DNA of 64,000 bases, from contig DAOUFJ010000018.1 of NCBI GenBank assembly GCA_034429935.1, positions 19,862 through 83,861 of the forward strand. Direction: 5' to 3'. Of this stretch, positions 20,382 to 57,118 are shown in pieces. The translations under genes and the position numbers were made by a program. The stretch comes from Dehalococcoidales bacterium. Its GTDB lineage: Bacteria; Chloroflexota; Dehalococcoidia; Dehalococcoidales; UBA5627. The notes beneath the pieces were generated by a model. That model ran no database searches. It had not been told where the DNA came from and saw only the letters and a list, made by a program, of their open reading frames with translations. Within the stretch, counting starts at the first letter, position 1, and each line of letters opens with the position of its first letter.

Positions 20382-23345
20382 TTGAAAGAAGAAAAAAGAA
20401 AACACACAGAGAATGAAGGGAAAAAGCAATCTAATGAAGTTTCGAGAAGAGACTTTCTGGTTGGTGCCAGCACTGTAGTCGTTGGTGGCGCTATCGGCGC
20501 TGGAATGTTTTCAAGCTGCGATGGAGAAACTGTTACCAAGACGATTGAGACCACTAAGACAGTTGAAAAGACAACGACGTTGGTTGGTAGTGGGGCGGTT
20601 ACCGTAACTGAGACCAAACAGGTGGGAGCTGATGAGACGATAACTTCAACAGTTACTTCCACTAAAATAGAAGGTGGCGTTGAGCCGGCATTTGAGGAAG
20701 AGACAACTGTAATAAAACAAATTAGTCCCGGTGGTATAACCGGAGAGCCTTGCTGCGTTGATGTCAAGAACGGCAAAATAGTCAGGATCAGACCGTTGCA
20801 TTATGACTGGAAGTATACTAAAGATGAACTTGCTGATGCCCTGTGGGCTTATGAGGCCAAAGGCAAGACTTTTGAAGCAGGCATAAAATCACTACCCAGT
20901 TACTTTGCCTTAGCCTATAAAAAGAGGATTTATTCCCCTATTAGAACCAAATATCCGCTACAGAGAGTCGATTGGGAGCCCGGTGGCGGCGACAATGTGA
21001 ATCCGCAGAATCGTGGTAAAAGCAAGTTCAAGAGAATTACTTGGGATGAGGCTACCAGTATAGTCGCCAGCGAAATAAAGAGGGTAAGAGAGACATATGG
21101 TAATTATGCCATATTATGTATAGGAGCAGACGGGCATCACGAGACCAAGAATGTTCATTCCGGCCAGGGTGCTCATATGATGCTTATGAATTTGTGTGGA
21201 GGTTATACCCTCGAGTTCAGGAATGCCGACAGCTGGGAAGGATGGTACTGGGGGGCGATGCATGTATGGGGAACCGGAGAAAACGGGCTTGCGGCTGGGA
21301 ATGCATCAGCAACCGTTACCGGAGACACCATAGAGGTAAACTCTATGCAGACTTCACTTTTCGATACTTCAGAGAACACTGAGATGATTGTGTATACGGG
21401 CTGTGATTATGAGACTACACCCCAGGGATTTGCCGGCCAGTATATGAGCAGAGTGGCGTCTTGGCTGGGAGAATTGGGAATAAAACAGGTATATGTATCG
21501 CCCGAACTGAATTATCAGGGCGCCGCACATCCGGACAAATGGATACCGGTACTGCCCAACACGGATATGTGCTGGCAAATGGCTGTGATATATATCTGGA
21601 TAGTGGAGGATACCTACGACAAAGATTTTGTTGAGACTCATACAATAGGTTTTGATAAGATAAGGGCCTATATCTTGGGAGAAGATGATGGTATTCCCAA
21701 GACGCCAGCGTGGGCGGCACCGAGGTGTGGCATGAAAGAGTGGACGATTAAGGCTCTGGCTAGGCAATGGGCGGCCAAAAAAACGTCAACAGGCCATTAC
21801 TTTGGAAGTCCTATGGCCAGGGGCCCGTATTCGACTGAACCGGCCAGGTGGGAAGCAGTACAGCTAGGAATGCAGGGGATAGGTAAACCGGGTGTCATGC
21901 AACTCTACGGCTCGACGCTGGCTGCACCTCCCCATGTCGGGCCGGCGGTCGGGATGACAATGGCGTTAGGCAGGTATCTGCCATTCTCGGCTACGCCACA
22001 GGTTATCGCCAGGACTCTGGTTCACCGGGCTATTATAGACGGACATTCCGAGCAATGGGGTCTTACCGGATTCATGCCGGTTGACGACCAGTTTATTAAA
22101 TATATCTACCCAATAGCCTCCGATGAGGGAGGTACCGAGATCCATATGGCATGGAGTGAAAAGCCCTGTAATACTGCTTGTTGGAACCATAGTAACAAGT
22201 TCATAGATGCCTTCAGAACCTCTAAGATAGAATGCTATGTCGTTAATCATCAATGGCTTCAGAACGATGCTATATTTGCCGATATAGTATTTCCTGTTAG
22301 CTGCCAGTGTGAGGAAGACGATATATATTCTATCTCGACCCCTTGCTCTGTAGAACTGGCGGGCGTTTGCGTATCGAAAAAGGCTGTAAAACCCATAGGG
22401 GAGTCTAAGAGCGACTACGAGATAGCTGCTGCGGTGTCCAAAAAGTTGGAGGAGTATGGTGGCCAGTATGAAGGTCTGTACGACGCATATACCGAAGACA
22501 TGACTATTGAAGAGAGGATAGAATCGGGCTTTGCGCAGTTTGAACTGGATGACATAATCAGTTGGGAGGATATGCAGGAAAAGCAGTACTGTTTAACTCC
22601 GCTGGTGCCCGGTTGGGAACAAATAAAGCCTACTATGAAATCGTTTTATGACGACCCCGAGTCAAACCCGCTGGATCTGCCATCAGGCAAAATGGAGTTT
22701 TATTCTGATAGATTGGCTACAAGCTTCCCTGATGACAAAGAAAGAGGGCCAATGCCTAAATATGTAATAGGCGGCCCTGAATCTGAAGGTTGGATACATG
22801 ATGAAAGTCTATATGGTGAGAGGGTAAAAAAGTATCCTCTGCTTCTGGAAGCGAACCATCCAAGGTGGAGACATCATCCGCAATGTGATGATATAGCCTG
22901 GTTCAGGGAAATCCCGACTATGAAGATCAAAGGTTACGATGGCTATATGTACGAGCCGGTCTGGATACATCCCACAACTGCTGCAGAGAGGGGCATAGAG
23001 CATGGTGATATCGTTAAAGTATATAACGATAGAGGAATCGAGCTCGGTGGAGCCTATGTAACTGAAAGGATGATCCCCGGAGCAGCACATATGGATCACG
23101 GCGCTGCAGTTGACATGATAACGGATAGAATTAATAGAGGAGGAACTGTCAATCCAATAACACCTGAGATGGGAAGTTCTAAATATTGTTGGGGAATGGC
23201 TGTATCCGGTTTTCTGGTTCAAGTTGAAAAGCTTGATCCGGCGCAGATGGAGGAATGGCGAAAGACTTATCCTGAAGCATTTGCCAGAGATTATGATCCG
23301 GCCTATGGAATTAAATATGATGGTTGGGTTGAAAAGGAGGTATAG
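20382..23345 (+). CDS. Exported molybdopterin (DMSO-reductase-superfamily) oxidoreductase catalytic subunit; TAT signal + lipobox + Thr-rich stalk; pyrogallol-transhydroxylase-like (no FS0 Cys motif)
   Basis: 987 aa. Twin-arginine SRRDFLVG (RR at 20445-20450), hydrophobic region, then MFSSC (Cys46 at 20517-20519). About 65 aa of T/V/E/K-rich linker follows. The molybdopterin fold then starts at CCVDVKNGKIVRIRP without a CxxCxxxC...C cluster motif. C-terminal MopB_CT-like barrel (GDIVKVYNDRGIELGGAYVTERMIPGAAHMDHG). Confidence 0.8.
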   Translation: MKEEKRKHTENEGKKQSNEVSRRDFLVGASTVVVGGAIGAGMFSSCDGETVTKTIETTKTVEKTTTLVGSGAVTVTETKQVGADETITSTVTSTKIEGGVEPAFEEETTVIKQISPGGITGEPCCVDVKNGKIVRIRPLHYDWKYTKDELADALWAYEAKGKTFEAGIKSLPSYFALAYKKRIYSPIRTKYPLQRVDWEPGGGDNVNPQNRGKSKFKRITWDEATSIVASEIKRVRETYGNYAILCIGADGHHETKNVHSGQGAHMMLMNLCGGYTLEFRNADSWEGWYWGAMHVWGTGENGLAAGNASATVTGDTIEVNSMQTSLFDTSENTEMIVYTGCDYETTPQGFAGQYMSRVASWLGELGIKQVYVSPELNYQGAAHPDKWIPVLPNTDMCWQMAVIYIWIVEDTYDKDFVETHTIGFDKIRAYILGEDDGIPKTPAWAAPRCGMKEWTIKALARQWAAKKTSTGHYFGSPMARGPYSTEPARWEAVQLGMQGIGKPGVMQLYGSTLAAPPHVGPAVGMTMALGRYLPFSATPQVIARTLVHRAIIDGHSEQWGLTGFMPVDDQFIKYIYPIASDEGGTEIHMAWSEKPCNTACWNHSNKFIDAFRTSKIECYVVNHQWLQNDAIFADIVFPVSCQCEEDDIYSISTPCSVELAGVCVSKKAVKPIGESKSDYEIAAAVSKKLEEYGGQYEGLYDAYTEDMTIEERIESGFAQFELDDIISWEDMQEKQYCLTPLVPGWEQIKPTMKSFYDDPESNPLDLPSGKMEFYSDRLATSFPDDKERGPMPKYVIGGPESEGWIHDESLYGERVKKYPLLLEANHPRWRHHPQCDDIAWFREIPTMKIKGYDGYMYEPVWIHPTTAAERGIEHGDIVKVYNDRGIELGGAYVTERMIPGAAHMDHGAAVDMITDRINRGGTVNPITPEMGSSKYCWGMAVSGFLVQVEKLDPAQMEEWRKTYPEAFARDYDPAYGIKYDGWVEKEV

Positions 23346-34440: not shown

Positions 34441-34442
34441 TT

Positions 34443-36123: not shown

Positions 36124-36480
36124 TATATCTCTAATCACTGTCAATTTATAATTGATAGGACGCTTGTAATTGTTCACAATATATACACTATTTATCTTCT
36201 TTTATATAAAAAAACAGGTTATTAATATTGACTGGTCCTATAGAACTATGTTAAGGTAGGTTAAGATGATTAACACAAATCAATATAAATTCCAATATTA
36301 TTTCCCGTAACCGGAAATAATAACTGAATAATAAAACCTCTGATTATTTCAATTATCCATTTCATAATTTACTAATACATTAATCTCTTTTTCAATGCCC
36401 TTATTATTATTCTATCCCGATTAGTTTTTACCTGTTGTCATATTATGCCTATTCTATTTCTCACTATTTTTATAAAAATT

Positions 36481-38584: not shown

Positions 38585-38654
38585 GAAAGGGGGTGGTGCT
38601 TAATAGCACAATTGCCATACAGGCAACAAATACTATTAAACATGGAGGATATAA

Positions 38655-39597: not shown

Positions 39598-40125
39598 TTA
39601 TCTGGTTTTATGTTGCCTGATATTTGTCATCAATGCCAGTAATCCCTTCATGATTTCCAGCGGGGTGGGGGGATTGCCGGGGATTTTAATATCCACCGGC
39701 AGTATCTTATCTGCGCCGCCGAGCACGGCATAACTGTCTCTCAGGATTCCGCCGTTGCAGGCATCATCGCCGACGGCAATCACGAAGCCGGGCTGCGGCA
39801 TCGCCTCGAAGGTCTTTTTAACAGCCAGAGCCATGTTATGAGTCACGGCTCCGGTAATCACGATAATATCGGCGTGTCTCGGCGACGCTACGAAGGATAT
39901 CCCGTAGCGTTCGATATCATAATACGGGGTGGATAAATTATTCAGTTCTATTTCGGCGGCGTTATCGCTACCCGAATCCAGCTCGCGTATGGCCAGGCTC
40001 CTGCCGAAAACGGAATCGATATTTTGCTTAAGCTCCATCCCCAGCTTCTGGAACTCTGTCTGCTCGGGTTTGAGGTCAGAAGCCAGTTTGTGTCCGAAGA
40101 AATTATGCAGCATTTCAGTTATCAT
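39598..40125 (-). CDS. NuoB/HycG-like 'small subunit' lacking three of the four [4Fe-4S] Cys ligands
   Basis: Start moved to ATG 40125, with GAGGA 6 nt upstream (the track ORF extends to 40245 inside the upstream gene). Conserved SPRHADIIVITGAVT. GSCNGCE is replaced by GSDNAAE (39955-39975) and PGCPP by PGNPP. Only GDDACNGG keeps a Cys. Confidence 0.8.
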   Translation of the reverse strand: MITEMLHNFFGHKLASDLKPEQTEFQKLGMELKQNIDSVFGRSLAIRELDSGSDNAAEIELNNLSTPYYDIERYGISFVASPRHADIIVITGAVTHNMALAVKKTFEAMPQPGFVIAVGDDACNGGILRDSYAVLGGADKILPVDIKIPGNPPTPLEIMKGLLALMTNIRQHKTR

Positions 40126-40139
40126 ATAATCCTCATAAG

Positions 40140-41699: not shown

Positions 41700-41713
41700 A
41701 GTATTATCTTAAA

Positions 41714-43189
41714 TCATAATCCGAGATTGACGACTATTTCCCCGAGTGTGCTGTCCAGCCAGGAAGGCATGTATACTCCCAGTACGATTATAACTCCCAG
41801 TGCCAGCAGGATGGACACTTTCATATTTACGGGGGTAACAAAAGGCTGTATCTCCTCATCAGTTTTCTGGCTGAACGTTTTTACCAGAAAAACGGCAAAT
41901 CCGGTTGCTACGAGTAAAATGCAGACCAGCAGTATGATAAATGCCGGAATCGATTCTGAAACGAGAACGCTGAGTACGTTCCACTTGGCTAAAAAGACGG
42001 GGAATAACGGAACACCTATAGCGGCGGCGCTTCCCAGTATAAAACCCCAGCTGGCCAGCGGTTGCAGATTGAAGGCATTTTTAACCGTAAAGTATTTATT
42101 GCTGTGATACTGGCGGTGGAAAATACCGGCACAGAAAAACAGCAGGGATTTTATGAACGAATATGCCATCTGGTGGAAAAGCCCCCAGAACAGGGCAACC
42201 GGAGACCCCAATCCTATCGCTAAAATCAAGAATCCCATGTTTTCGACGCCTGAAAACGCCAGCAGCTTCTTCGTATTCGTTCTGGAAAGGATGCTGAAGG
42301 CGGCGATTATGATGCTGAGCAGCCCGAAAACCAGAAGAAATGTTTGCAGAAAATCCCCGGCACCTGTTTTATGGCCGATGGCGTAAAGCCGGAGTATGGC
42401 ATAGATACCCATGTTCAATACCGTCCCGGAAACGACAGCCACCACCGAAGGCGCACGGACATAGGCCGTCGGTACCCACGTGTGGAAGGGGGCGATGCCG
42501 GCTTTGGCGGCAAAGCCGATGAACAAAAAGATAAAGGCAAAGTTGAACAGCGTGGGGTCTAACGAGGCGGCGGCATTCATCAGTGTCGTCCAGTTGAGGC
42601 TGCCGCCTTCTATGGTTCCCTGGCTCATCGTAAAAAGAATTATGATTCCGATAAACCCGAAAAGCATGGCCGTCGATGCGATAAAGATATACTTCAGGGC
42701 GGCAATGATATTTTCCCTGGCGTTCAGCGTTACTATGAGTACGGCCGTCAGGATGGTGCTCAGTTCGAGGAATATCCAGAGCAGGGCGATGTTGTTGGCG
42801 GACAGTCCCAGGACTATCAGCATCTCCAGCAGGCAGAAGGCCCCGTAAAAAAACTTGTGAACGGAAGTGTCCAGGTCACCGGTTTTTAAAAGGCTGGAGA
42901 CATAACCGCGCGCATATATGGAAGCGAGCAGAAATACGGCCGAAGTAATCAGTATCTCGTACATGGAAAGACGGTCGATGTAGAAGTATTCGTTTTCCAG
43001 GAAATAGACCGGCAGTTCTACCCAGCCGGCCAGCCAGATGCTTATGCCGATGTAGATAAACGCCTGTATGATAACCAGGTTGTTCAGAAAAAAGTTATCC
43101 GGACTCGCAGCGCGTTTGCCGACAATCAGCAGCAGGCAGATTATTATAAACGAAGGAATCGCATATAGAGCTAGAATGCAGTTTTCCAT
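41714..43189 (-). CDS. NuoM/N/HyfF-like antiporter-type membrane subunit
   Basis: 491 aa, about 14 TM. Proton-antiporter family motif region FIGFAAKAGIAPFHTWVPTAYVRAPSVVAVVSGTVLNMGIYA. Confidence 0.85.
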   Translation of the reverse strand: MENCILALYAIPSFIIICLLLIVGKRAASPDNFFLNNLVIIQAFIYIGISIWLAGWVELPVYFLENEYFYIDRLSMYEILITSAVFLLASIYARGYVSSLLKTGDLDTSVHKFFYGAFCLLEMLIVLGLSANNIALLWIFLELSTILTAVLIVTLNARENIIAALKYIFIASTAMLFGFIGIIILFTMSQGTIEGGSLNWTTLMNAAASLDPTLFNFAFIFLFIGFAAKAGIAPFHTWVPTAYVRAPSVVAVVSGTVLNMGIYAILRLYAIGHKTGAGDFLQTFLLVFGLLSIIIAAFSILSRTNTKKLLAFSGVENMGFLILAIGLGSPVALFWGLFHQMAYSFIKSLLFFCAGIFHRQYHSNKYFTVKNAFNLQPLASWGFILGSAAAIGVPLFPVFLAKWNVLSVLVSESIPAFIILLVCILLVATGFAVFLVKTFSQKTDEEIQPFVTPVNMKVSILLALGVIIVLGVYMPSWLDSTLGEIVVNLGL

Positions 43190-43867
43190 CTAATCCTCGA
43201 ATTTCAACCCGAATTTCACCAGCCTGCGGTGGAAGGATTCGATGCTCGAATCGATACCGAAAGCCATGACCGTAGATATAAGTATCAATATCAAGAGGTC
43301 GATAACTATCAGAACTTCTATGATAAAAGGCATCTCTGCCATAAACAGGCTGAAGAGCAATACACCGTTTTCCATGGTCAGGTATCCGATAATCTTCGTA
43401 ATAACCTTCTTGCGGCTGAATATGGCCGTCATCCCCATGAGTACCAGCGAAACCCCGATAACCCCTCCCAGCAGGAAAAGCCGGTCTTCGAAAAGAGAAC
43501 TGGCAAACCTGGTAAAGAAGAAGTAGACGATAAATATCAGTACGGCGCTGATTATAATAGAGCTGACCGGGGACAGGTAATAGAACTGGATATCCCTTTT
43601 TACCGGCATATTTTTCAATATTTTATTCAGCAGGAACGGGATAAGCACTACTTTGACGGCTATCGTTAACAGTGCTATCCACAGCAGGTTCAGTGTGCCG
43701 TGTCCGATAAAAAGGACGATAGCCATGACTGCCAGTATCAGCGATTGGACGGCATAGATATTGAAAAGGGAAACAAGCGATCGCTGGGTCATAATCAGAG
43801 CTGCCGTTCCCAGAATAAGAACGAATAATGCCTGGATGATATCGTTTAAAGCAATCATATTTATCAT
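43190..43867 (-). CDS. HyfE-like small membrane subunit
   Basis: 225 aa, about 7 TM. Position and size match HyfE/EhrC-type subunits. Overlaps the upstream gene by 4 nt. Confidence 0.65.
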   Translation of the reverse strand: MINMIALNDIIQALFVLILGTAALIMTQRSLVSLFNIYAVQSLILAVMAIVLFIGHGTLNLLWIALLTIAVKVVLIPFLLNKILKNMPVKRDIQFYYLSPVSSIIISAVLIFIVYFFFTRFASSLFEDRLFLLGGVIGVSLVLMGMTAIFSRKKVITKIIGYLTMENGVLLFSLFMAEMPFIIEVLIVIDLLILILISTVMAFGIDSSIESFHRRLVKFGLKFED

Positions 43868-44814
43868 GACAGTAACTCAAATACTATAGTAACGAAGGAT
43901 AAAAATAAGGCCATCATAAAGAAATCCGGCAGTCGGAAGAAGCGTATCTTGGCAAAGAAGGATTCGAATATGCCGACTGCTATTGCCAGTATGATGGCTT
44001 TAAGCATGAAAGAGCCTATCGATATGAGAATTCCCGTGAGCGTCATTTCGGTTGCCAGTCCCCATGGGAAAAGGATGTTGATAAGCAGCGCCATCAATAT
44101 TAACTGCTTGACGCCGTAAGATAATTCCATCAAAGCCAGCTTCGGCCCCGTTTGTTCCAGTATCATGGTTTCGTGAATCATGGTAAGCTCGAGATGGGTT
44201 TCCGGGTTGTCTACCGGAATCCTTGCAGTTTCCACGATGAGGATAATGAACAGGGAACAGGCGACCATGAAGAGCGTCGGATATTGCAGGACGGAGCCGC
44301 CGAGCACTGTCCCGAACATCTCCGGGATACTGGTGGTCTTCAAGATAAAAGCCATGGCGGCGCATGCCATCAGCGTAGTCGGTTCTATAATCGAGGCAAT
44401 CGTCATCTCACGCGAACTGCCCATGCCGCCGAAGGTGCTGCCGGCATCCAGCCCTGAAAGCGCCATAAAGAAGCGGGCGCATACCATCAGGTAAAGGAAC
44501 AGGATGATATTGCCGAAGCCGCTTTCAGGCAGCGGAATAAAAACAACCGGAACGAATATAGATGCAGCCAGCAAAAAGGAGATATTCAGATAGGGGCTGA
44601 TGCGCATTATAAAAGAGGAATTGTCGGAATATACAATCTCTTTTTTGCAGAGTTTATAAAGCTGCAGGTAGCTCTGGAATAACGGTGTTCCGATGCGTCC
44701 CTGGCACATTGCCTTCACCTTCTTTATCAGGCTGACGAGCAGCGGCGCAAATAAAAACACGAAAACCGTGTTCAGGATGGTATACAGTATTATATTCCAG
44801 TTCATAGCCACCAC
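43864..44814 (-). CDS. NuoH/HycD/HyfC-like membrane subunit
   Basis: 316 aa, about 8 TM. ETARIPVDNPETHLELTMIHE matches the NuoH/HycD conserved acidic loop. Confidence 0.8.
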   Translation of the reverse strand: MVAMNWNIILYTILNTVFVFLFAPLLVSLIKKVKAMCQGRIGTPLFQSYLQLYKLCKKEIVYSDNSSFIMRISPYLNISFLLAASIFVPVVFIPLPESGFGNIILFLYLMVCARFFMALSGLDAGSTFGGMGSSREMTIASIIEPTTLMACAAMAFILKTTSIPEMFGTVLGGSVLQYPTLFMVACSLFIILIVETARIPVDNPETHLELTMIHETMILEQTGPKLALMELSYGVKQLILMALLINILFPWGLATEMTLTGILISIGSFMLKAIILAIAVGIFESFFAKIRFFRLPDFFMMALFLSFVTIVFELLS

Positions 44815-46739
44815 CCTGCAGTTACCAGCAGAATCACGATGGTAGCGAAGGCATACAGGATAAAGGTTTCCAGGTCCTTGTTGTGCTTTTGTGAAATGAA
44901 TCCGGCGATTGCCATAAAGAAGTGAGCGATTGGCATATAGATACGTTCCTCGAAAAACCTGAAGGTGGTAATCTTGGCCTCGGTACGCATGGTGATGCTG
45001 TTTTCCTTATCGAAGTACTCTTTGCGGTTGTTTTTTTTGGTGCGGAAAATAAACGAGAATATGGTAACAATCGGTTCCGAGAAGCCGGTAGCTGTATATT
45101 CCATGTTCCCGGTTTGCCTGCCGATGCCGCAGCCCCATGTTTCACTGATTCTGACAGGCACATGGCTCAATTTCAGCAATCCGGCAAACAGCAGGATTAT
45201 AAACAGCAAAACAATGCTCAGCGGGAGCATGTTGGGTATCGGCAAATCGAACCCGATGCCTTTTATTATCTGGAATGAGAATACCCCCAGCACAACACAC
45301 AGAATAGCCAGTACCGACGGCCCTGCCAGCATTCCGAATGGTGCTTCTTTTGCCCTTTCCGCCTCTTCGGAACGCGGTCTGGCCAAAAATACGATGCCGA
45401 ATGCTTTTACAAAGCAGGCGGCAGCAAGGGCGCTCATGAAGGCGAATGCCGCCAGTCCGATAACCATTATTATTTCAATTAAAGCGTTATTCAATGCGAA
45501 CGATTGCAGGTATGCCTGGAAAATCATTATTTCGCTGGCAAAGCCGTTCAAAGGCGGCAGGGCAGAGATGGCGCAGGAGCCGATAAGAAACAGGTAAGCC
45601 GTTACGGGCATGGTTTTCACCAGACCGCCCATCTCTTCGATATTGCGTGTTCCGGTAGCCTGTACCACCGAACCGGCGGTCATAAACAGCAGGCTCTTGA
45701 AGATCGCGTGGTTCAATGTATGGAACAGGGCGCCTACCAGGCTTAAATTTGCCTGTGTTTCCAGCCCGTAATGGGCAAAGATGACGTATAGACCCAGTCC
45801 GGTAACGATAATGCCTATATTTTCTATGCTGTGATAGGCCAGCAGTTTCTTGAAATCATGCTCTTTGAGGGCGTATATTACACCCAGGACGGCCGAAACG
45901 GTTCCGAAAGCTAAGAGTACGAAACCCCACCATAATTCGGGTTCGAGCACATCGAAAGCGAAACGGCAAAGTCCATATATGGCGACTTTGAGCATTACTC
46001 CCGACATCAAAGCAGATACGTTGGACGGCGCTGCCGAGTGGGCATACGGCAGCCATTTATGAAAGGGGATGACACCCGCCTTGGTTCCGAACCCGACAAA
46101 AAATGCCAGGAAAACGAAGCTCTTGGCGACTTGCGGCAGAGTGTCCGCAGCCTGCATATCGAAAGTCCCCGTATATTTGTATATCAATAAGAAAGCGATG
46201 AAAAGGAATAAAGTGCTGAACTGCGTCATCACGAAGTAAAAGATGCCCGCTTTTTGAGTCTCCGGTTTTTCTCTTTCATACATTACCAGAAGGAATGAAG
46301 ATATCGACATTATCTCCCAGAAAAACAGGAAACAGAACATATTGGCTGAGGCGACAACCATCAGCATCGACAGGATGAAAAGAGGCAGCAAGGCAGTCGA
46401 TATCTGGCGTCTTTTCTCGCTGCCGCTGTGTTCGATATAGCTGAAGGAGTAGATGGTGCAACAGAAGCCGACAATGCCGACCAGGGCGATGAAGAAGCTG
46501 GATAACCTGTCCATGTAAATGTTGAATACGATGTCAGTGGTAAGTGAATAGATAGTCTGGCTGTAGTCTGCGCCGGTGAAAAAACAGATGAGCGCGGCTG
46601 TGGTTATGCAGGCTAATCCCGATAGCAGTATTAATAAAGCGGTACGGCGGCTGGTTTTGCCGGGCTTAACTATGGTAACCAGCGGCATGATAAAAGCCAG
46701 CAGCAGGAGCATAGCTCCCGCTTCAAAAAGTGTTTCCAT
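44802..46739 (-). CDS. NuoL/HyfB-like antiporter-type membrane subunit
   Basis: 645 aa. FGTKAGVIPFHKWLPYAHSAAPSNVSALMSGVMLKVAIYG is a typical NuoL/M/N motif. First gene of the operon. Confidence 0.85.
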   Translation of the reverse strand: METLFEAGAMLLLLAFIMPLVTIVKPGKTSRRTALLILLSGLACITTAALICFFTGADYSQTIYSLTTDIVFNIYMDRLSSFFIALVGIVGFCCTIYSFSYIEHSGSEKRRQISTALLPLFILSMLMVVASANMFCFLFFWEIMSISSFLLVMYEREKPETQKAGIFYFVMTQFSTLFLFIAFLLIYKYTGTFDMQAADTLPQVAKSFVFLAFFVGFGTKAGVIPFHKWLPYAHSAAPSNVSALMSGVMLKVAIYGLCRFAFDVLEPELWWGFVLLAFGTVSAVLGVIYALKEHDFKKLLAYHSIENIGIIVTGLGLYVIFAHYGLETQANLSLVGALFHTLNHAIFKSLLFMTAGSVVQATGTRNIEEMGGLVKTMPVTAYLFLIGSCAISALPPLNGFASEIMIFQAYLQSFALNNALIEIIMVIGLAAFAFMSALAAACFVKAFGIVFLARPRSEEAERAKEAPFGMLAGPSVLAILCVVLGVFSFQIIKGIGFDLPIPNMLPLSIVLLFIILLFAGLLKLSHVPVRISETWGCGIGRQTGNMEYTATGFSEPIVTIFSFIFRTKKNNRKEYFDKENSITMRTEAKITTFRFFEERIYMPIAHFFMAIAGFISQKHNKDLETFILYAFATIVILLVTAGWWL

Positions 46740-47024: not shown

Positions 47025-47819
47025 ATGACTAAAATAAGAAGTAATAGAAATATCGTTGTCCATCAAATAGATAACAGCAGGGTGGAAGAGACAAGGCGTA
47101 TAGAACGCAAGTTCTTCATATCTCCCGATAAAATCGATTATGCCCTGGCTATATTGAAGCAAACCTGTCTCCCCGACAGTGAAAATTCCGATGAATGGAT
47201 AAACAGCCTCTATTTCGATAGCGATGACCTGGAACAGCATGAAAAGTCTTCTTCCGGGGACAGCCGTAAGGATAAGGTGCGCATCCGCTGGTATTATAAA
47301 CTTGGCGATTACCAGTATTCCGTTCCCGTATATATCGAGCACAAAACGCGTGAAGGATTCGTCGGAACCAAGCAGCGCAAAAAGGTAGTTGCTCCGCTTG
47401 AAAATCTGGAAATGCAGAATCTCGTGAAAGGTATCGTTCCTGAGTCCCAGCTTATAGATACACTATCCGCTTTTGGTTATTTCCCTTCAAGACGCATCAG
47501 TCCGGTTATCGTCATATCGTATTACCGCCATCATTTTACGGATTTAATGAGCGGCATGCGGGTCAGCCTGGATTACAATATCGCCTCCACCATGATCGAC
47601 CGGTCATTCGGCTACGGCGATAAGGATTTGAAGCTGCCGGGCGGCATTATCGAAATCAAGGGAACAAAAATGGAACTGCCGGAGACGCTGTGCCGGTTGA
47701 AACAGCTGGATATAGACTGGACGCGTTTTTCCAAGTATTCGTCATGCCTGGAGGCTCACATGGCGGAACCTCATTCGCTTTTGAGGCTCTGGCCCTCGGG
47801 AAGAAATCCATTAAGTTAA
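47025..47819 (+). CDS. VTC-domain protein (CYTH-like, polyphosphate-polymerase-type tunnel domain)
   Basis: 264 aa. Starts its fold with RIERKFFIS and continues INSLYFDSDDL...KVRIRWY...VYIEHKTRE...GIIEIKG, as in bacterial VTC (PF09359-type) proteins. Recognition is from memory, not searched. Confidence 0.7.
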   Translation: MTKIRSNRNIVVHQIDNSRVEETRRIERKFFISPDKIDYALAILKQTCLPDSENSDEWINSLYFDSDDLEQHEKSSSGDSRKDKVRIRWYYKLGDYQYSVPVYIEHKTREGFVGTKQRKKVVAPLENLEMQNLVKGIVPESQLIDTLSAFGYFPSRRISPVIVISYYRHHFTDLMSGMRVSLDYNIASTMIDRSFGYGDKDLKLPGGIIEIKGTKMELPETLCRLKQLDIDWTRFSKYSSCLEAHMAEPHSLLRLWPSGRNPLS

Positions 47820-50672: not shown

Positions 50673-51584
50673 TTAAGCAGCTGCCATTTCTGCAATCAAT
50701 TCTTCGATAACGGTCATTGCATCGTTGATGTTTATAGCGTAACCCATTCCCTCCACGCCGACATCGGATACCTTGGCGTTGGTGATTCCGATGACTTCCC
50801 CGTTCATGTTTATCAGTATGCCGCCGCTATTGCCGGCGTTTATAGCGGCGCTGGTTTCGATTAACCCGCTCAGCGTTTGATTTTCGACATCTATAGAAAC
50901 GTTCATCTGGCTGATAATCCCTTCCTTGGCGCTTACTCCCATGTCCAGTGAGTTACCCAGGGTTACCACCCAGTCGCCGATTCGCAACTGGGTGGAATCG
51001 CCGGTTGCCGCCGCTTGCAGGTTATCGGCATCGATTTTAAAAATGGCTAGATCGGCTTCTTCATCATAATATACAGTGCTGGTATCGACGTCGCAGACCC
51101 TGCCGTCGTCTAGCGTGACGCTGATACTGTCGGCACCGTCGACGACATGATAGTTGGTAACGATGATTCCGCTGTCGTCGATAATCCACCCGGAACCGGC
51201 GCCTTCTTCCGTATAGTAATATCTGCCCCATAGAGTATATGTATAGGTCGTGTTTATGGCGACTACGGATGATTTGACTTCGGCTACAACATCGGCAATA
51301 TTTACAGATTCGGTTACGGTCGAAGTCTGCCCACCTAAATTCTGTACGGTAGCTTCCAGAGAAGCCACACTGTTTGCCAGTGAATTAACTTCCGATATCT
51401 CGTTTTGCAGAGAAGAAATCTGTTCCACGGCTGTCGATAGTTGAGCTTCGAGAGAACTTATCTGTGCATCGGCTTCTTCGAGCTGTTCGCTTTGCGTCGA
51501 GAGCATTGATACCCCGATAAGTGTGATAACTATCAGGATGATAGTGACCGGTAAAAATACCCATTTGGCAATAGAATTATTCAT
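50673..51584 (-). CDS. Membrane-anchored trypsin-like serine protease (HtrA/DegP S1C family) without PDZ domain
   Basis: 303 aa. N-terminal TM, a coiled-coil-like heptad region (QLEEADAQISSLEAQLSTAVEQISSLQNEISE), then the protease core with His (VTNYHVV), Asp (DLAIFKI) and Ser (GNSGGILIN). The ORF ends about 60 aa after the Ser, so there is no room for a PDZ domain. Confidence 0.85.
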   Translation of the reverse strand: MNNSIAKWVFLPVTIILIVITLIGVSMLSTQSEQLEEADAQISSLEAQLSTAVEQISSLQNEISEVNSLANSVASLEATVQNLGGQTSTVTESVNIADVVAEVKSSVVAINTTYTYTLWGRYYYTEEGAGSGWIIDDSGIIVTNYHVVDGADSISVTLDDGRVCDVDTSTVYYDEEADLAIFKIDADNLQAAATGDSTQLRIGDWVVTLGNSLDMGVSAKEGIISQMNVSIDVENQTLSGLIETSAAINAGNSGGILINMNGEVIGITNAKVSDVGVEGMGYAININDAMTVIEELIAEMAAA

Positions 51585-51705: not shown

Positions 51706-52827
51706 TTAAATTGAATTATAAAGCGGCAGATGTACTGTAAAAGTACTGCCTGCATCGGGTTTGCTTTTAACGTTTATCGTTCCTTTATGCGACTCAATTA
51801 TCTCTTTGACGATGGCCAGCCCCAGTCCTGTTCCCCCCTGTGCGCGCGACCTGGATTTATCAACGCGGAAGAAGCGGTCGAAGATATGTTTCTGGTCTTC
51901 TTCGGAAATTCCGATGCCGTTATCCTCGACTGTAATAACGGCGTTTTGCCCGTCTTTACATGTGGATATCTTCACGCTGCCGCCCGGGCGGTTGTATTTA
52001 ATGGCGTTGTCGATAAGGTTGGTGAAAGCCTGTTTAAAGGCAAAATTATCGCCTTCGACCGGCAGTTCTTCCGCTGAGGCATCGAAAGTCAGGGTTATGT
52101 TGCTGTTTTGGGCATATGTATTTATTTCTTTCAGGATGTCATCGATGAGAGCGTTCATATCAATTACCGTGTATTCGGCAATCTGCTGCTGATTCTTGGA
52201 TAATACCAATAATTTTTCGCTTAACTGGCTCATGCGTTCGGTGTTCATTTTCAAAACCTCGACCAGTTTCCGGTAATCTTCGGCGGACGGATTTTCATCC
52301 ATCTCTATTACTTCTATGTTCGTTTTGGCGATGGCTATAGGGGTTTTCAACTCGTGCGAGGCATCCTGGACAAACTGGTTTTGTGCATTGAAAGATTCCT
52401 CCAGCCGGTTTAACATGTTGTCGAAGGTATCGGCCAGCCGTTTCATTTCGTCGTCGGGCCCCTGGTAGTTGATGCGCTCTTTTAAGTTGCTGGTGGATAT
52501 GCGTGTCGCCAGTGCTGAAACATTATCGATTGGTTTGAGCATTCTTTTGGAAAGGAAATACCCGCCCAGAGCGCAGAGTATAAGCAGTACTCCGAAGCTG
52601 ACCCACGAGTAGATTGTCAGGTAATCCCCGTATTTCTCTCCTGCCATTTGAGCTATTTCAAACGCTTCCCTAGGGTCGCCCGCAAAGCGCGGCGGAATAT
52701 CGTTTTGAGCTATTTCCATCGTCAGGTTGTAGCCGACTATCAGCAGGGCGCCGATAAGTAAGAAAAAAATAAGGTACCAGAGTGTGAGCTTGAAGCCGAT
52801 GGTTCTGGTAAAAACCGGGGCTTTCAT
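51706..52827 (-). CDS. Membrane sensor histidine kinase (2 TM + HAMP)
   Basis: 373 aa. H-box SHELKTPIAIAKTNIEVI, ATPase boxes LIDNAIKYN, DNGIGI, GTGLGLAIV. Overlaps the regulator gene by 4 nt. Confidence 0.9.
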   Translation of the reverse strand: MKAPVFTRTIGFKLTLWYLIFFLLIGALLIVGYNLTMEIAQNDIPPRFAGDPREAFEIAQMAGEKYGDYLTIYSWVSFGVLLILCALGGYFLSKRMLKPIDNVSALATRISTSNLKERINYQGPDDEMKRLADTFDNMLNRLEESFNAQNQFVQDASHELKTPIAIAKTNIEVIEMDENPSAEDYRKLVEVLKMNTERMSQLSEKLLVLSKNQQQIAEYTVIDMNALIDDILKEINTYAQNSNITLTFDASAEELPVEGDNFAFKQAFTNLIDNAIKYNRPGGSVKISTCKDGQNAVITVEDNGIGISEEDQKHIFDRFFRVDKSRSRAQGGTGLGLAIVKEIIESHKGTINVKSKPDAGSTFTVHLPLYNSI

Positions 52828-53486
52828 ATCATGTATCCTCTTCCTTTTACGGTCTTAATCAAATCACCTGCTCCGATGTCGCTCATTTTCTTGCGGATAT
52901 TGCTGACGTGTACCTTGATAGCCTGTGTAAACATATTCGATTCCTCATCCCAGATATGTTCCAGCAGTTCTTCCTGGCTGACGATTCTGCCGCTGTTCTG
53001 CATCAGGTACTCCAGGATGGCAAACTCCTTGACCGTAAAAATAGTTTCCTTATCTTTATTATATCCCTTGATGGTATTCGGGTCGATTACGAAGTCCCCG
53101 TTTCTGAGTATGACATTTCGCTGTCCGCCCTTGCGCCTGAGAATGGCGCGTACTCTGGCCAGCAGTTCCGGAAAATGAAATGGTTTTACCAGGTAGTCAT
53201 CGGCTCCTGTTTCCAGTCCCCTGGTGCGGTCTTCTACTCCCGAACGTGCGGTCAGCATCAGTATGCCGACGGGGGAATCGGCGGCTCTCAGTCTTTTGCA
53301 GACTTCCATCCCGTCCACTTTAGGAAGCATGATGTCCAGAATTATCAGGTCGTAGCTGTTCAGCTCCGCTTTGTAGAGGGCTTCCTCCCCGTCGTAAGCG
53401 GTGTCGCTGGCATAACCCTGCTTGTTTAAACCCCTGGCTATGGCATCGGCCAGTTCTTTTTCGTCTTCGACTACCAGTATTCTCAT
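52824..53486 (-). CDS. OmpR/PhoB-family response regulator
   Basis: Receiver (MRILVVEDE, ILDIMLPKVDG, LVKPF) plus winged helix (FTVKEFAILEYL, VHVSNIRKK, TVKGRGY). The start is set at ATG 53486; the track uses GTG 53501. Confidence 0.88.
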   Translation of the reverse strand: MRILVVEDEKELADAIARGLNKQGYASDTAYDGEEALYKAELNSYDLIILDIMLPKVDGMEVCKRLRAADSPVGILMLTARSGVEDRTRGLETGADDYLVKPFHFPELLARVRAILRRKGGQRNVILRNGDFVIDPNTIKGYNKDKETIFTVKEFAILEYLMQNSGRIVSQEELLEHIWDEESNMFTQAIKVHVSNIRKKMSDIGAGDLIKTVKGRGYMI

Positions 53487-53630
53487 AACAGTGAATTTCA
53501 CTCCATCTTTACTTGGTATTTATATCAATTATATAACTTGTTCAGTAAAGGATGAGTAAAGAATGGGGGGGTAACTTTCAATTCTTTTTATTCGGTAGTT
53601 GTCTCCCGAATTGAAAATCAGGGTATGCCG

Positions 53631-54683
53631 TTAGATTACCAGTAAAAGGCCGACCAGGGATAAAACCGCAATGGGAGGCAGCGCAGGCATCGGTTTGCCT
53701 TTCAGTATGTATGATTGAATCAGATATGCGCAAATAAGTCCGGCAAGGGAGAATATGGCAACCAGCACGGCGGAGTTCAATCCCAGTGCAAAATAAACCG
53801 CCGAGGTCAGAAGCAGAGGGAATCCGATGTCGCCGCCGCCCAGAATCGAGTGGCTGAAACGTTCGGATTTCTTTCCTGTTTCTGCGGGGGTTGTATTTTG
53901 GGTGGCAGGGCTTTTCAGGCTGCCTGTCCATTCATTGATGCTGGATGGGATTACGAAGGCCGGCAGGCTGTCCGATGATTCCATTTTCTTTGCCATCCAT
54001 GTCATGAACCCGAAGCGCACGGCAAGGAAGTCGTAAACCGCAATTACCAGCAGTAGTATCATGGCCGTCCACGGTGACACCAGTCGTCCGAAGACCGCAC
54101 CCAGGCTGACCATGGTCAGTATCATGATGATGTTATGCAGCCATATCCTGGGCATGAAGAACCACAGTATGCCCGTAGCCAGCGCAATAACGATGGATGG
54201 AATGAACGGCATCCAGAAAACGAGAACGATAAATATTCCCCATGAAAACAGGAAAGCGAACAATGCCCGGAATAACAGTTTCAATGCCGATAGAGGTATG
54301 GCAAACAGCACTATTCCCAGCACAATTACGACACCGAAAAAGTAGAGCAGGATGGCTCCCAGCGATGAGAATATCGGCGTTTTCGAGATCAGTTCGGTTA
54401 CCACTTCCGTAACCTGGGTTTGCGTTTCAGTCGTGGTGATGACCAAGTTGGAGACGGTGGTGGTTCTAATCTCCGTGGTCGTGTTGGTTGTCGTTCCGGT
54501 AGTTGTTGCCGTGGTGGTTGTCGGCCACAATATCACTTCTTCCGGCTGGGTGGGAATAACTATCTCATGTTCCTCAAAATAAGCATCTTCACGTATAATG
54601 ACGCCGAATGTGATTGCCTGAGCAACGATAAATATCAAAATGCCCCAGTATAAGGGCTTGATTTTGAAGTTCTTCCAGTTCAT
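53631..54683 (-). CDS. Presenilin/signal-peptide-peptidase-type (A22 family) intramembrane aspartyl protease homologue
   Basis: 350 aa polytopic protein. Catalytic signatures in the canonical order: YD (IAVYDFLAV, D218 at 54030-54032), GxGD (ILGGGDIGFP, D285 at 53829-53831) and PAL (PMPALPP, 53679-53687). A Thr-rich extracytoplasmic insert follows TM1. Confidence 0.75.
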   Translation of the reverse strand: MNWKNFKIKPLYWGILIFIVAQAITFGVIIREDAYFEEHEIVIPTQPEEVILWPTTTTATTTGTTTNTTTEIRTTTVSNLVITTTETQTQVTEVVTELISKTPIFSSLGAILLYFFGVVIVLGIVLFAIPLSALKLLFRALFAFLFSWGIFIVLVFWMPFIPSIVIALATGILWFFMPRIWLHNIIMILTMVSLGAVFGRLVSPWTAMILLLVIAVYDFLAVRFGFMTWMAKKMESSDSLPAFVIPSSINEWTGSLKSPATQNTTPAETGKKSERFSHSILGGGDIGFPLLLTSAVYFALGLNSAVLVAIFSLAGLICAYLIQSYILKGKPMPALPPIAVLSLVGLLLVI

Positions 54684-54800
54684 TGTCCGTCCATTCTAAA
54701 CTACAGATATTTAAATGTCTAATTTTGCTTTTGTTTTTTCTGTATTGTATAGTCCCTTTATGCCGATATTTATGTGGCAGGGTAATTAAAGTGAATCAAG

Positions 54801-54873: not shown

Positions 54874-55021
54874 AAAAATACTAATGATAAAAATAGCCAT
54901 AATTAATACCTTTGAACTATAAAACCATTGTGTTTTGTAGAAGAACCGCTATAATAAAAACGCACGGTTTGTGAAAAGGATACTTGATATTTGATAAAAT
55001 TAAGGTAAAATGTGGTGAATT

Positions 55022-55810
55022 ATGATAGAAGTACTGCGCAATAAAAATCAAACCACGAAGTTCCAGATTCTTGTCGAAATCGCCGATAAAGGCCCCGATA
55101 TACAGCAGCGCGAAATTGCCAGGGAGCTGGATATCACCCCGCAGGCGGTATCCGATTATATCGCACAGCTCATCAATGAGGGCATGCTGGTTGCGCTGGG
55201 CCGTTCCAGTTACCGTGTAACCAACGAGGGCGTCAACTGGGTAATCAAGTCTCTCAGGGAATTAAACAGCTACAATAACTTTATCCAGAGGGCTGTAAAT
55301 AATATATCCGTCTGTGCGGCTTTGGCGGAAGATGATTTGAAGCAGAACCAGCCGGTGTCTCTGGTTATGAAGGACGGATTGCTTTATGCTTCTTCCAAAG
55401 TCGATAACGGGGCGACCGGTTTTACCGTCTCGAGTGCCGGAGCAGGGGATGACGTCGGCATCTCGGGAGTCAAAGGCATAGTCGCTCTGAGGACAGGCAA
55501 CGTCACGATATTGAAAATTCCCGATATTTCGAGGGGCGGTTCCCGCAGGGTCAATTATAATGCGCTTAAAAAATATGCGGCTGCCGGCGATATAATAGTG
55601 GGTTTGGGGCTGGAAGCCTATGCCGCACTGCGTAAAGCGGGTGCCGATTTTTACAGGTACGGGGCTGTCGAGGTTACGGTTGAGGCTGCCAGGACAGGGC
55701 TCAACCCGTTCGTTGTCTGTGTCGAAGGGGCGCTCAACGAATTGATTATCCGGCTGGAAAAGGAGAAAATCCACTACGAACTCGTTGCGGAGTCGAGCTT
55801 ACCGGGATGA
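55022..55810 (+). CDS. Winged-helix transcriptional regulator with uncharacterised C-terminal domain
   Basis: 262 aa. The N-terminal wHTH (QREIARELDITPQAVSDYIAQLINEGMLV...YRVTNEGVNWV) is MarR/ArsR-like. The C-terminal ~170 aa were not recognised. Confidence 0.65.
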   Translation: MIEVLRNKNQTTKFQILVEIADKGPDIQQREIARELDITPQAVSDYIAQLINEGMLVALGRSSYRVTNEGVNWVIKSLRELNSYNNFIQRAVNNISVCAALAEDDLKQNQPVSLVMKDGLLYASSKVDNGATGFTVSSAGAGDDVGISGVKGIVALRTGNVTILKIPDISRGGSRRVNYNALKKYAAAGDIIVGLGLEAYAALRKAGADFYRYGAVEVTVEAARTGLNPFVVCVEGALNELIIRLEKEKIHYELVAESSLPG

Positions 55811-56035: not shown

Positions 56036-57118
56036 TTGAAGAAATTTACAAGGATTATTTCTATTATAGGTTTAATTGCAATTATGGCTCTGTCGGTTCC
56101 GTTCGTTACCGGTTGCGAACCGGAGGTGGAAACGGTAACGGCGACCACCACGAAAACGACAACATCGACATCTGCCACAACTGTAACTTCCACAGCTACC
56201 GAAACCATCAATAACACCGTTACTTCTACATCGACTACAACCGAGACTTCGGTATCCACGGTAACCGAAACCGTCCAGTTGATTTCCGTTACCGATGATG
56301 CGGGTATAACTTATACCTTCGAAGGGCCGGTCGATTCTATCGTTTCCCTGGCTCCGAGCATTACGGAAATGGTCTATTTCGTAAATGCCGGAGATAAATT
56401 AATCGGCAGAACCGATTACTGTAATTATCCGGAAGAAGTAAGCGAAGTCGCCAGTATCGGCGGTTATTACAGCCCCGATGTCGAATTAATCGTATCGCTC
56501 GACCCGGATGTGGTGCTGGCGGACAGCATCCAGGTTGACACCGGGGATGTGGAATATTTGCAGTCGCTGGGCATGACGGTTATCGTTATCGACTCCAAGA
56601 ATATCGATGATATCCTGGATAATATCCTTCTCGTCGGCGAGATAACCGGCAATCTGGATACCGCCACCGAAGGCGTTGCCGGGTTACAGGCAAGAATCGA
56701 TGCCGTTGTCGAAACGATTGCAGCAGCCAATATAAGTGATGAGGATAAACCGGGTGTTTTGCATGTTACCTGGTATGACCCACTGTGGACTATCGGTCAG
56801 GGGTCGTTCTTGAACATAGTTATCGAGATGGCGGGCGGCGTCAATATTTTTAATGATATTACAGACAGCGATTTTCAGGCTGACCTTGAGCAGGCTATCT
56901 CTCGTAATCCCGATGTGATTACGGTGGTATCCGACCATGGCTCCGAGACGTCTTATTATTATGTTCTTGACGAAGGTTCGCCGTTTATCGAGACCAATGC
57001 CTATATTAACGGCGATGTCTATATCGTAGATTCCGATATCGTTTGCCGCCCCGGACCGCGCATAGTCGATGCCCTGGAGTTGTACGCGAAATTGCTGTAT
57101 CCTGAGTTGTTCTCTTAG
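56036..57118 (+). CDS. btuF: Cobalamin/siderophore-type periplasmic-binding lipoprotein (BtuF-like) with Thr-rich stalk
   Basis: 360 aa. TTG start with a GAGG SD. Lipobox FVTGC (Cys27 at 56114-56116), about 55 aa of T/S/V-rich linker, then a Peripla_BP_2 fold (IVSLAPSITEMVYFVNAGDKLIGRTDYCNYPEE). Confidence 0.8.
   Translation: MKKFTRIISIIGLIAIMALSVPFVTGCEPEVETVTATTTKTTTSTSATTVTSTATETINNTVTSTSTTTETSVSTVTETVQLISVTDDAGITYTFEGPVDSIVSLAPSITEMVYFVNAGDKLIGRTDYCNYPEEVSEVASIGGYYSPDVELIVSLDPDVVLADSIQVDTGDVEYLQSLGMTVIVIDSKNIDDILDNILLVGEITGNLDTATEGVAGLQARIDAVVETIAAANISDEDKPGVLHVTWYDPLWTIGQGSFLNIVIEMAGGVNIFNDITDSDFQADLEQAISRNPDVITVVSDHGSETSYYYVLDEGSPFIETNAYINGDVYIVDSDIVCRPGPRIVDALELYAKLLYPELFS

Follow-up and report, generated by a model that had tools for sequence, protein, structure and literature searches.

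At the catalytic core of gamma-secretase stands presenilin, a protease whose mechanism has been investigated in one archaeal model enzyme, PSH, still without a known physiological role. This enzyme, also named MCMJR1, comes from Methanoculleus marisnigri (PDB 4HYC, 4HYG and 4Y6K; NCBIfam model NF041679); it works without cofactors in vitro (PMC2947513) and its physiological substrates are unknown (PMC9263693). Our literature searches returned no experimental or comparative study of the bacterial proteins in this family, hence no report of activity, which is consistent with the first-pass annotation of the present DNA, where these proteases were described as unstudied in bacteria.

Here we describe a gene for a presenilin-family (MEROPS A22, Pfam PF06550) protease with nine transmembrane helices (TM1 to TM9), located at 53631..54683 on the minus strand of a 64,000-nucleotide stretch of Dehalococcoidales DNA, which we refer to as the window. 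The open reading frame has an ATG start and encodes 350 aa, and the assignment draws on the reading frame itself, Pfam, NCBIfam, profile searches, AF2 and Foldseek. The host is taken to be bacterial because RecN, a bacterial-type RnfC, EctB and a LolCE-like permease are all encoded in the window, and because the loci most similar to the protease locus come, every one, from Dehalococcoidales/Dehalococcoidia MAGs. A tRNA scan and an Rfam scan of the window gave no matches.

The protease has PF06550 in common with PSH, together with nine TM helices, a YD motif in TM6, a GxGD motif in TM7 and P-x-L before TM9, and its predicted structure matches PSH with a Foldseek probability of 1.00 and a target-normalised TM-score (TMt) of up to 0.69. 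Both are single polypeptides, and a partner gene is not evident for the protease described here. The two proteins are, however, only ~24% identical over 195 residues (BLASTP), and they differ in several details: the residues following YD are FLAVRFGFM, whereas PSH and the Patescibacteria group have A(I/V)xVY(K/R)TKHM; the second motif is GGGD here and GMGD in PSH; loop 1 carries a 47-residue Thr-rich insertion; and the host is bacterial.

Presenilin-1 and presenilin-2 of human gamma-secretase (MEROPS A22A) share with the protease both the fold (Foldseek probability 1.00, TMt 0.51-0.54) and the arrangement of YD, GxGD and PAL at the active site, as well as the N-in/C-out orientation predicted for it (PMC7768045). 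The human complex also contains nicastrin, APH-1 and PEN-2, of which there is no sign here; moreover, the protease has a far shorter TM6-TM7 loop, autoproteolytic maturation is not suggested, and the variable residue of GxGD is a small Gly in place of Leu. Eukaryotic SPP and SPPL2a (MEROPS A22B, PF04258) are cofactor-independent GxGD proteases of the same fold, and SPPL2a is the best Foldseek match (E 2.5e-5), but the membrane orientation predicted for the protease is the inverse of theirs (PMC7768045) and a different substrate orientation is therefore expected.

Family assignment, active-site motifs and fold

By family, motifs, fold and orientation, the protein is shown in silico to be a presenilin-family (A22) intramembrane aspartyl protease, and within this known family the gene product is unremarkable. 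PF06550 was matched at 34.5 bits (gathering score 23.9, E 2e-8), the alignment covering residues 110-348 of the protein and positions 41-276 of the 283 in the profile. The NCBIfam model of archaeal PSH, NF041679, was matched at E 1.2e-12, with 47.9 bits against an equivalog cutoff of 125 bits; the protein is thus homologous below the equivalog level, and functional equivalence to PSH is therefore not established. The eukaryotic SPP/SPPL model PF04258 (Peptidase_A22B) remained below its gathering cutoff (19.3 vs 23.3 bits, E 9e-4) and no match to the Pfam Presenilin model PF01080 was listed at E<=1.

In searches of the PDB, the single sequence reached PSH only at E 0.83, a profile of the clade returned PSH as the sole significant match (E 1.7e-5), and a wide-family profile matched PSH at 9.8e-36 over TM1-TM9, presenilin-1 at 5e-10 and presenilin-2 at 1.3e-9. 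The AF2 model, for which a 57-sequence alignment with Patescibacteria relatives was used as input, consists of nine long helices and has a pLDDT of 86.0 and a pTM of 0.82; a shallow alignment of 26 sequences gave a pLDDT of 59.7 and was left unused. When the model was compared with the PDB using Foldseek, the best 22 matches were all SPPL2a, presenilin-1 or PSH, with probabilities of 0.98-1.00 and TMt of 0.49-0.69, and beyond them the probability was <0.2.

The first catalytic Asp, D218, belongs to the YD motif (codons Y217-D218; 54030..54035, minus strand), which is contained in IAVYDFLAV, lies in TM6 (helix 204-223) and aligns to the YD of PSH. The second, D285, closes the GxGD motif (codons G282-G283-G284-D285; 53829..53840, minus strand), which is contained in ILGGGDIGFPLLL, stands at the cytoplasmic start of TM7 (helix 283-300) and aligns to the GMGD of PSH. 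The PAL motif (codons P333-A334-L335; 53679..53687, minus strand), within PMPALPP, is placed directly before TM9 (helix 335-349). Hydropathy and the AF2 helices both give nine membrane helices and both set D218 and D285 in the neighbouring helices TM6 and TM7.

Conservation follows the same residues. Across 111 relatives, down to ~22% identity, Y217, D218, V222, G282, G284 and D285 are invariant columns, and A334, L335 and P336 are conserved in at least 90% of the sequences. YD is invariant in each of the 26-, 57- and 111-sequence alignments, and PAL is without variation in the alignment of the Dehalococcoidia clade.

These results bear out the core of the first-pass annotation, which had proposed an A22 presenilin/SPP-type GxGD protease in a bacterium: PF06550, the fold and the topology of the two Asp residues all agree with it. 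The three A22 motifs of the 350-aa polytopic protein are exactly where it had placed them, and the topology prediction it had recommended does put both Asp in adjacent TM helices.

Distribution in bacteria and the Thr-rich insertion

In Dehalococcoidia/Chloroflexota, cultured Dehalogenimonas included, the family amounts to at least 1430 clusters when its proteins are grouped at 90% identity, and a profile search found it to be abundant in Patescibacteria too. The earlier statement that such proteases are uncommon in bacteria holds phyletically, but not within Dehalococcoidia/Chloroflexota and Patescibacteria, where they are abundant. A public protein of 99% identity is already titled 'presenilin-like A22 family membrane protease', proteins of Dehalogenimonas (WP_076004813.1) and Patescibacteria already carry the name 'presenilin family intramembrane aspartyl protease', and GenBank, RefSeq and JGI label family members as presenilin family. 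The presenilin family in these bacteria is already known to annotation pipelines, and no new mechanism or system is indicated.

The best representative match is the protein of Dehalogenimonas formicexedens (E 2.2e-120); the proteins of Dehalogenimonas and most other Dehalococcoidia are ~312-319 aa long and are without the long insert. Patescibacteria proteins (e.g., from Candidatus Nealsonbacteria) belong to the same family; hhalign aligned them to the Dehalococcoidia clade with a probability of 100% and E 2.7e-48 over TM1-TM9. They are ~280 aa long, share 23-33% identity over the whole alignment and 27-39% in the best local alignments, and have no Thr-rich insert; their genes usually follow a NIF3-like gene. 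In BLAST scores, the proteins of Dehalococcoidia come closer to the Patescibacteria group than to PSH, the archaeal comparison sequence being a partial PSH rebuilt from the HMMER alignment.

Loop 1, the extracytoplasmic stretch linking TM1 to TM2, carries the Thr-rich insertion (residues 54-100, 46% Thr by composition; 54384..54524, minus strand). The segment has no counterpart in other Dehalococcoidia or in Patescibacteria, against which it aligns purely as an insertion, and it is confined to the closest clade (at least 74% identity). AF2 draws a beta-hairpin in it with moderate confidence only (pLDDT ~65-76), and two further exported proteins encoded in the window have comparable Thr-rich linkers. 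The insert to which the first-pass annotation drew attention is indeed present between TM1 and TM2, but it represents a general linker trait, spread across the lineage, of exported proteins in this genome.

Upstream region and gene neighbourhood

A consensus scan located a promoter-like element, TAGACA-17 nt-TAGAAT (54693..54721, minus strand), which ends 10 nt 5' of the ATG. It falls within a ~40-bp block that is kept in 9/9 related loci, the middle of the intergenic region being variable, and suggests that transcription of the protease gene starts from a separate promoter and yields a very short leader. The divergently transcribed neighbour (55022..55810, plus strand) encodes a winged-helix regulator with a DUF7839 domain (Pfam PF25211, HTH families). 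This gene adjoins the protease gene in all close-clade loci, though not in distant members, and has a separate conserved upstream block of ~95 bp. An operator common to the two divergent genes was considered and rejected, as each conserved block hugs one gene start and the sequence between them is variable; comparison of the divergent intergenic region likewise gave no sign of regulation of the protease gene by the HTH-DUF7839 protein.

On the other side of the protease gene lie an OmpR-type response regulator (52824..53501, minus strand) and a HAMP/HisKA/HATPase sensor kinase (51706..52827, minus strand), both recognised by Pfam. This two-component pair (51706..53501) is placed between the protease gene and that of a membrane-anchored, PDZ-less HtrA-like serine protease (50673..51584, minus strand), which is composed of an N-terminal TM, a coiled coil and a Pfam Trypsin_2 domain with the triad H146/D178/S253.

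Wherever a close-clade locus extends far enough, the HtrA-like gene lies downstream of that for the protease. By comparison, the two-component pair is present in four of the nine close-clade genomes with downstream sequence (the window and L001-L003) and missing in the other five (L004 and L006-L009), and it is therefore best seen as an indel, for which the HtrA-like gene is the more plausible partner. Adjacency of the protease and HtrA-like genes is absent in eight loci at 45-55% identity (L010-L017, in seven distinct places), distant members having unrelated neighbours, and in the Patescibacteria loci examined, so that, across the family, the two proteases are found side by side only at 75% identity or more and their coupling is not conserved. 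The neighbours had been listed as such in the first-pass annotation, and Pfam agrees with that list; the functional link that it drew to the HtrA-like and two-component set is weak and restricted to close relatives (at least 75% identity).

Predicted orientation, candidate role and rival explanations

The positive-inside rule predicts an N-in/C-out, presenilin-type orientation in which the long TM6-TM7 loop is cytoplasmic, with K+R counts inside/outside of 13/4 in the protease and a mean of 15.5/3.0 over 26 sequences. The Thr-rich linkers in exported proteins of this genome fit a loop 1 that lies outside. In a rule that derives from eukaryotic enzymes, presenilin-type versus SPP-type orientation is linked to substrate class, with type II substrates cleaved exclusively by SPP/SPPL enzymes, whose topology is the inverse (PMC7768045).

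Taking the evidence together, we consider it likely that the gene encodes a stand-alone presenilin-type protease, inserted N-in, which cuts type I stubs and is expressed from its own promoter. From these comparisons we infer a putative catalytic activity, substrate class and physiological role. The active site would lie close to the cytoplasmic leaflet and comprise D218 (YD, TM6) and D285 (GGGD, TM7), completed by PAL at the start of TM9, giving a stand-alone, catalytically competent enzyme whose nearest characterised relative is archaeal PSH/MCMJR1. Judging from presenilin and PSH, the predicted substrates are most likely TM helices of type I (N-out) single-pass proteins with short or already shed ectodomains, and the protease may serve in membrane-stub clearance or in regulated intramembrane proteolysis, with no cofactors needed. 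Transcription would proceed from its own conserved promoter, and the gene would be of a housekeeping type in Dehalococcoidia, a pattern suggested because gene context differs across the family.

Other identities and roles were weighed against this reading. A type IV prepilin or preflagellin peptidase (A24, PilD/FlaK-like) likewise combines a GxGD-like motif with a polytopic membrane architecture, which would make the A22 call a motif coincidence, and one distant relative (L016) does adjoin T2SSE/T2SSF genes. This T2SS neighbourhood is, however, not conserved among the other distant relatives; the HMM search proposed in the first-pass annotation assigned PF06550 and found nothing for Pfam Peptidase_A24 even at E<=1; Foldseek returned no prepilin-peptidase or FlaK structure, its significant matches being A22 throughout; the PAL motif is present and conserved in the protease family; and the profile alignment to PSH spans all nine TMs. 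An A24 identity is refuted by the profile and fold searches, and we give it next to no credence. Alternatively, the protein could be the cell's signal-peptide peptidase, clearing signal-peptide remnants, including those of lipoproteins, after signal peptidase I/II as eukaryotic SPP does. Bacteria normally use SppA and RseP for signal-peptide clearance, which counts against this role. It gains from the Pfam family title ('Signal-peptide peptidase, presenilin aspartyl protease'), from the naming of archaeal homologues as candidate signal peptide peptidases (PMC8305020, PMC9263693), and from a gene that appears stand-alone and housekeeping in a variable context. Yet signal peptides are N-in, type II, and eukaryotic type II substrates need the inverse SPP/SPPL enzymes (PMC7768045), so the predicted N-in, presenilin-type orientation argues against it; the sub-cutoff score of the eukaryotic SPP model PF04258 does likewise. 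We regard this role as unlikely, and the first-pass suggestion of signal-peptide or lipoprotein-remnant clearance conflicts with the same predicted orientation.

The neighbourhood offers a further role, that of a site-2 protease in an envelope-stress cascade, in which the HtrA-like enzyme sheds the ectodomain of a single-pass regulator, the presenilin-type enzyme cuts the remaining stub and the two-component system exerts control. The protease, regulator, kinase and HtrA-like genes share one strand, terminator-like sites are lacking between the protease and response regulator genes, and the HtrA-like gene follows in all sufficiently sequenced close-clade loci; moreover, the HtrA-like protein has an N-terminal anchor and an external catalytic domain, in the manner of a sheddase, and a presenilin-type orientation is compatible with stubs remaining after shedding. 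Against this, the adjacency is limited to relatives of at least 75% identity, where common descent alone predicts synteny, and does not extend to L010-L017 or Patescibacteria; the two-component pair is lacking in 5/9 close-clade genomes; the intergenic gaps measure 121-354 bp; and a conserved promoter of its own is predicted for the protease gene. A two-component system beside an HtrA gene is also a common self-contained stress module (MprAB-PepD, CssRS-HtrA). We find such a cascade improbable. Slimmer still is the prospect that the presenilin-type and PDZ-less HtrA-like proteases together constitute a bacterial two-step pathway resembling gamma-secretase processing, in which the former would cut, inside the membrane, the type I stub left once the latter had shed an ectodomain, with tuning by the two-component system in some genomes; if true, presenilin-dependent regulated intramembrane proteolysis would thereby be known from a bacterium for the first time. 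A related, milder and equally improbable version is that presenilin-family proteases would be ancient in bacteria (Dehalococcoidia and Patescibacteria), as opposed to an innovation confined to archaea and eukaryotes.

The discovery value of the stand-alone presenilin-type protease that we favour is small, since the family is already recognised in Dehalococcoidia and Patescibacteria. The bacterial homologues, widespread in these two groups and present in Dehalogenimonas, which is both cultured and genome-sequenced, could provide further simple, cofactor-free model enzymes, and through them the native function of presenilins in prokaryotes may become accessible.

Family assignment of the protease

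The protease gene (53631..54683, minus strand) starts with ATG and encodes 350 aa. Its YD motif (Y217-D218, in IAVYDFLAV) lies in TM6, the GxGD motif (GGGD; G282-D285, in ILGGGDIGFPLLL) at the cytoplasmic start of TM7, and the PAL motif (P333-L335, in PMPALPP) just ahead of TM9, so that the open reading frame and all three motif positions claimed in the first-pass annotation were confirmed from the sequence coordinates. Hydropathy and the helices of a confident AF2 model gave nine membrane helices (10-38, 108-128, 131-155, 160-176, 180-201, 204-223, 283-300, 302-326 and 335-349), and, in keeping with that annotation, the predicted layout does not place the aspartates outside the membrane.

Its assignment to MEROPS family A22 also withstood the profile searches, which pointed to no unrelated family. 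PF06550 ('Signal-peptide peptidase, presenilin aspartyl protease') matched with 34.5 bits (E 2e-8; gathering score 23.9), PF04258 (eukaryotic SPP) fell slightly under its cutoff of 23.3 with 19.3 bits, and the NCBIfam equivalog for the archaeal presenilin homologue (PSH) matched with E 1.2e-12 and 47.9 bits, far under its 125-bit cutoff. A profile built from the Dehalococcoidia clade only found one significant match among solved structures, the PSH of Methanoculleus marisnigri (E 1.7e-5), with the YD, GxGD and PAL regions all lining up. Widening the profile to 111 family members raised this match to 9.8e-36, covering TM1-TM9, followed by human presenilin-1 (5e-10) and presenilin-2 (1.3e-9). 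Across these 111 sequences, which reach down to ~22% identity, only Y217, D218, V222, G282, G284 and D285 were invariant, therefore the catalytic signature represents the conserved core of the family and not a chance motif; A334, L335 and P336 were at least 90% conserved.

Structure prediction gave a pLDDT of 59.7 on a shallow alignment, and 86.0 (pTM 0.82) on a 57-sequence alignment. All 22 Foldseek matches in the PDB with a probability of at least 0.98 were SPPL2a, presenilin-1 or PSH (target-normalised TM-score 0.49-0.69), beyond which the probability fell sharply to <0.2; no prepilin-peptidase fold was among the PDB matches. Type IV prepilin peptidases (Peptidase_A24) were considered as the family of this protein and were ruled out by the profile and fold searches, no Pfam Peptidase_A24 model matching even at E<=1. 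Overall, the presenilin-family assignment is well supported.

Orientation, substrates and the threonine-rich loop

Under an N-in model the N-terminus, the TM4-5 loop, the long TM6-7 loop and the TM8-9 loop are inside, and the loops of the protein carry 13 Lys and Arg residues inside against 4 outside. The means over 26 clade members are 15.5 and 3.0, with a minimum difference of 8 for a single sequence. The predicted N-in/C-out orientation is that of presenilin and the inverse of that of SPP/SPPL. Eukaryotic presenilins cleave type I substrates, whereas the inversely oriented SPP/SPPLs cleave type II substrates, signal peptides included (PMC7768045). By analogy with this eukaryotic relation, the predicted orientation would place the enzyme better for N-out single-pass stubs than for N-in signal-peptide remnants. 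The earlier idea of a role in signal-peptide clearance is thus weakened and disfavoured.

The Thr-rich insert noted after TM1 is present (Thr accounts for 46% of residues 54-100, in the TM1-TM2 loop), and in its long form is confined to the closest clade. It is not special to the protease, however, since two other exported proteins of the window, a DMSO-reductase-family molybdopterin oxidoreductase (20382..23345, plus strand) and a lipoprotein-type Peripla_BP_2 binding protein (56036..57118, plus strand), have equivalent linkers directly after the N-terminal anchor or lipobox Cys, with 40-53% Thr over 30 residues. These linkers therefore support placing loop 1 outside, and show the insert to be a lineage trait rather than a protease-specific device. 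They look like a lineage-wide feature of tethers outside the cytoplasm and may be glycosylated spacers, the bacterium reportedly having no peptidoglycan wall.

Gene neighbourhood and promoter regions

Pfam bore out the neighbours named previously, namely an OmpR-type response regulator (52824..53501), a HAMP/HisKA/HATPase kinase (51706..52827) and a Trypsin_2 protease (HtrA-like; 50673..51584), the last being N-terminally anchored, with a coiled coil and with its H146/D178/S253 triad intact; no PDZ domain was found in it by Pfam. A cascade of sheddase (the HtrA-like protein) and intramembrane protease would be an attractive analogy, and the order of a divergent HTH-DUF7839 gene, the protease gene and the HtrA-like gene is kept in nine related loci (75-87% identity), but such adjacency is what common descent in a narrow clade would yield. 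None of the HTH-DUF7839, HtrA-like or two-component neighbours occurred in the eight loci L010-L017 (seven distinct places), where identity is 45-55%. Furthermore, the two-component pair (51706-53501) occurs in the window and L001-L003 only, as an indel separating the presenilin-like gene from the HtrA-like gene: in five related genomes (L004, L006-L009) it is absent and the HtrA-like gene directly follows the presenilin-like gene. The proposed functional link to an envelope-quality-control set is therefore weak, and the HtrA-like gene is the more plausible partner of the two-component pair.

Gaps in the window are 129 bp between protease and regulator genes and 121 bp between kinase and HtrA-like genes; where the HtrA-like gene directly follows the protease gene, the gap is 141-354 bp. 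A ~40-bp block immediately 5' of the protease start codon shows conservation across the nine related loci. It contains TAGACA-17-TAGAAT, ending 10 nt ahead of the ATG, and suggests that the protease gene is transcribed from a promoter of its own; midway between the two divergent genes the sequence varies. The divergent winged-helix and DUF7839 regulator (55022-55810, plus strand), with weak NCBIfam matches to archaeal-type regulators (ArnR, Lrs14, Sta1), is preceded by a ~95-bp block (54927-55021), almost invariant in the nine related genomes, which probably serves as the regulator gene's own promoter/operator.

The presenilin-family genes of Patescibacteria have a NIF3-like gene as their conserved neighbour. 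On three Candidatus Nealsonbacteria-like contigs (L018, 7729-10849; L019, 8841-10744; L020, 7765-10849) this NIF3-like (DUF34) gene precedes the presenilin-family gene, with a DUF763 gene and a 73-aa ORF overlapping the protease start between them in two; L020 also has an intein-interrupted RtcB gene adjoining an archease gene. One distant Dehalococcoidia-type presenilin-like gene (L016/L017, 558-4103) lies closely downstream of T2SSE/T2SSF genes, for the ATPase and platform of a type IV pilus or type II secretion system, and of two unannotated ORFs, an arrangement not conserved elsewhere.

Host and distribution in bacteria

The window is bacterial, given its RecN, bacterial-type RnfC, EctB, LolCE-like permease and Cbi genes and its closest genomic loci, all from Dehalococcoidales/Dehalococcoidia MAGs. 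Other systems at 39598-46739 (-), 690-2018 (-), 33145-34955 (-) and 36445-39521 (+) comprise a membrane-bound Ech/Mbh/Hyf-type hydrogenase cluster with antiporter-like subunits, RnfC, EctB ectoine synthesis and a ProV-type compatible-solute ABC transporter, a set in keeping with an anaerobic Dehalococcoidales lifestyle in a saline or marine setting. Three sizeable ORFs, of 451 aa (9161-10516, -), 385 aa (25959-27116, -) and 264 aa (47025-47819, +), gave no NCBIfam match at E<=1e-5.

Searched exhaustively by HMM, a set of 1.84 billion representatives, each standing for one 50%-identity cluster, yielded matches in 873 clusters at E<=1e-3, of which 403 reached E<=1e-10. A second group of ~280 aa supplied 93 of the 110 best full-length representatives; its GenBank names are '[Candidatus Nealsonbacteria bacterium]' and '[Patescibacteria group bacterium]', and its contigs are plainly bacterial (UvrB, RuvA, GreA, SmpB, IF3, L20/L35, S20, DNA polymerase III delta, Mur ligase). 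The Dehalococcoidia and Patescibacteria groups aligned by hhalign with 100% probability (E 2.7e-48; 277 columns, TM1-TM9). A ~287-aa subgroup labelled 'Chloroflexota bacterium' (P0300-P0355, e.g. P0310, P0320 and P0355) shares 50-56% identity with the window protein over a match spanning only the C-terminal 68-79%; TM1 and loop 1 differ, or the start is miscalled. The family is phyletically patchy in bacteria, and only in that sense uncommon, as the first-pass annotation had it; within Dehalococcoidia/Chloroflexota and Patescibacteria it is abundant.

The window protein is an ordinary, previously annotated family member, and our assignment agrees with public annotation: a 99% identical protein (P0001) bears the JGI name 'presenilin-like A22 family membrane protease', and an 85%-identical one the NCBI name 'presenilin family intramembrane aspartyl protease [Dehalococcoidales bacterium]'. 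Orthologues under an identical RefSeq name (e.g. WP_076004813.1) occur in the cultured Dehalogenimonas formicexedens, D. etheniformans and D. lykanthroporepellens. No papers on bacterial members were found in the literature searched, and to that extent the family's description as unstudied in bacteria holds. The finding has mild value in recalling that cultivable organisms carry bacterial presenilin homologues still untouched by experiment.
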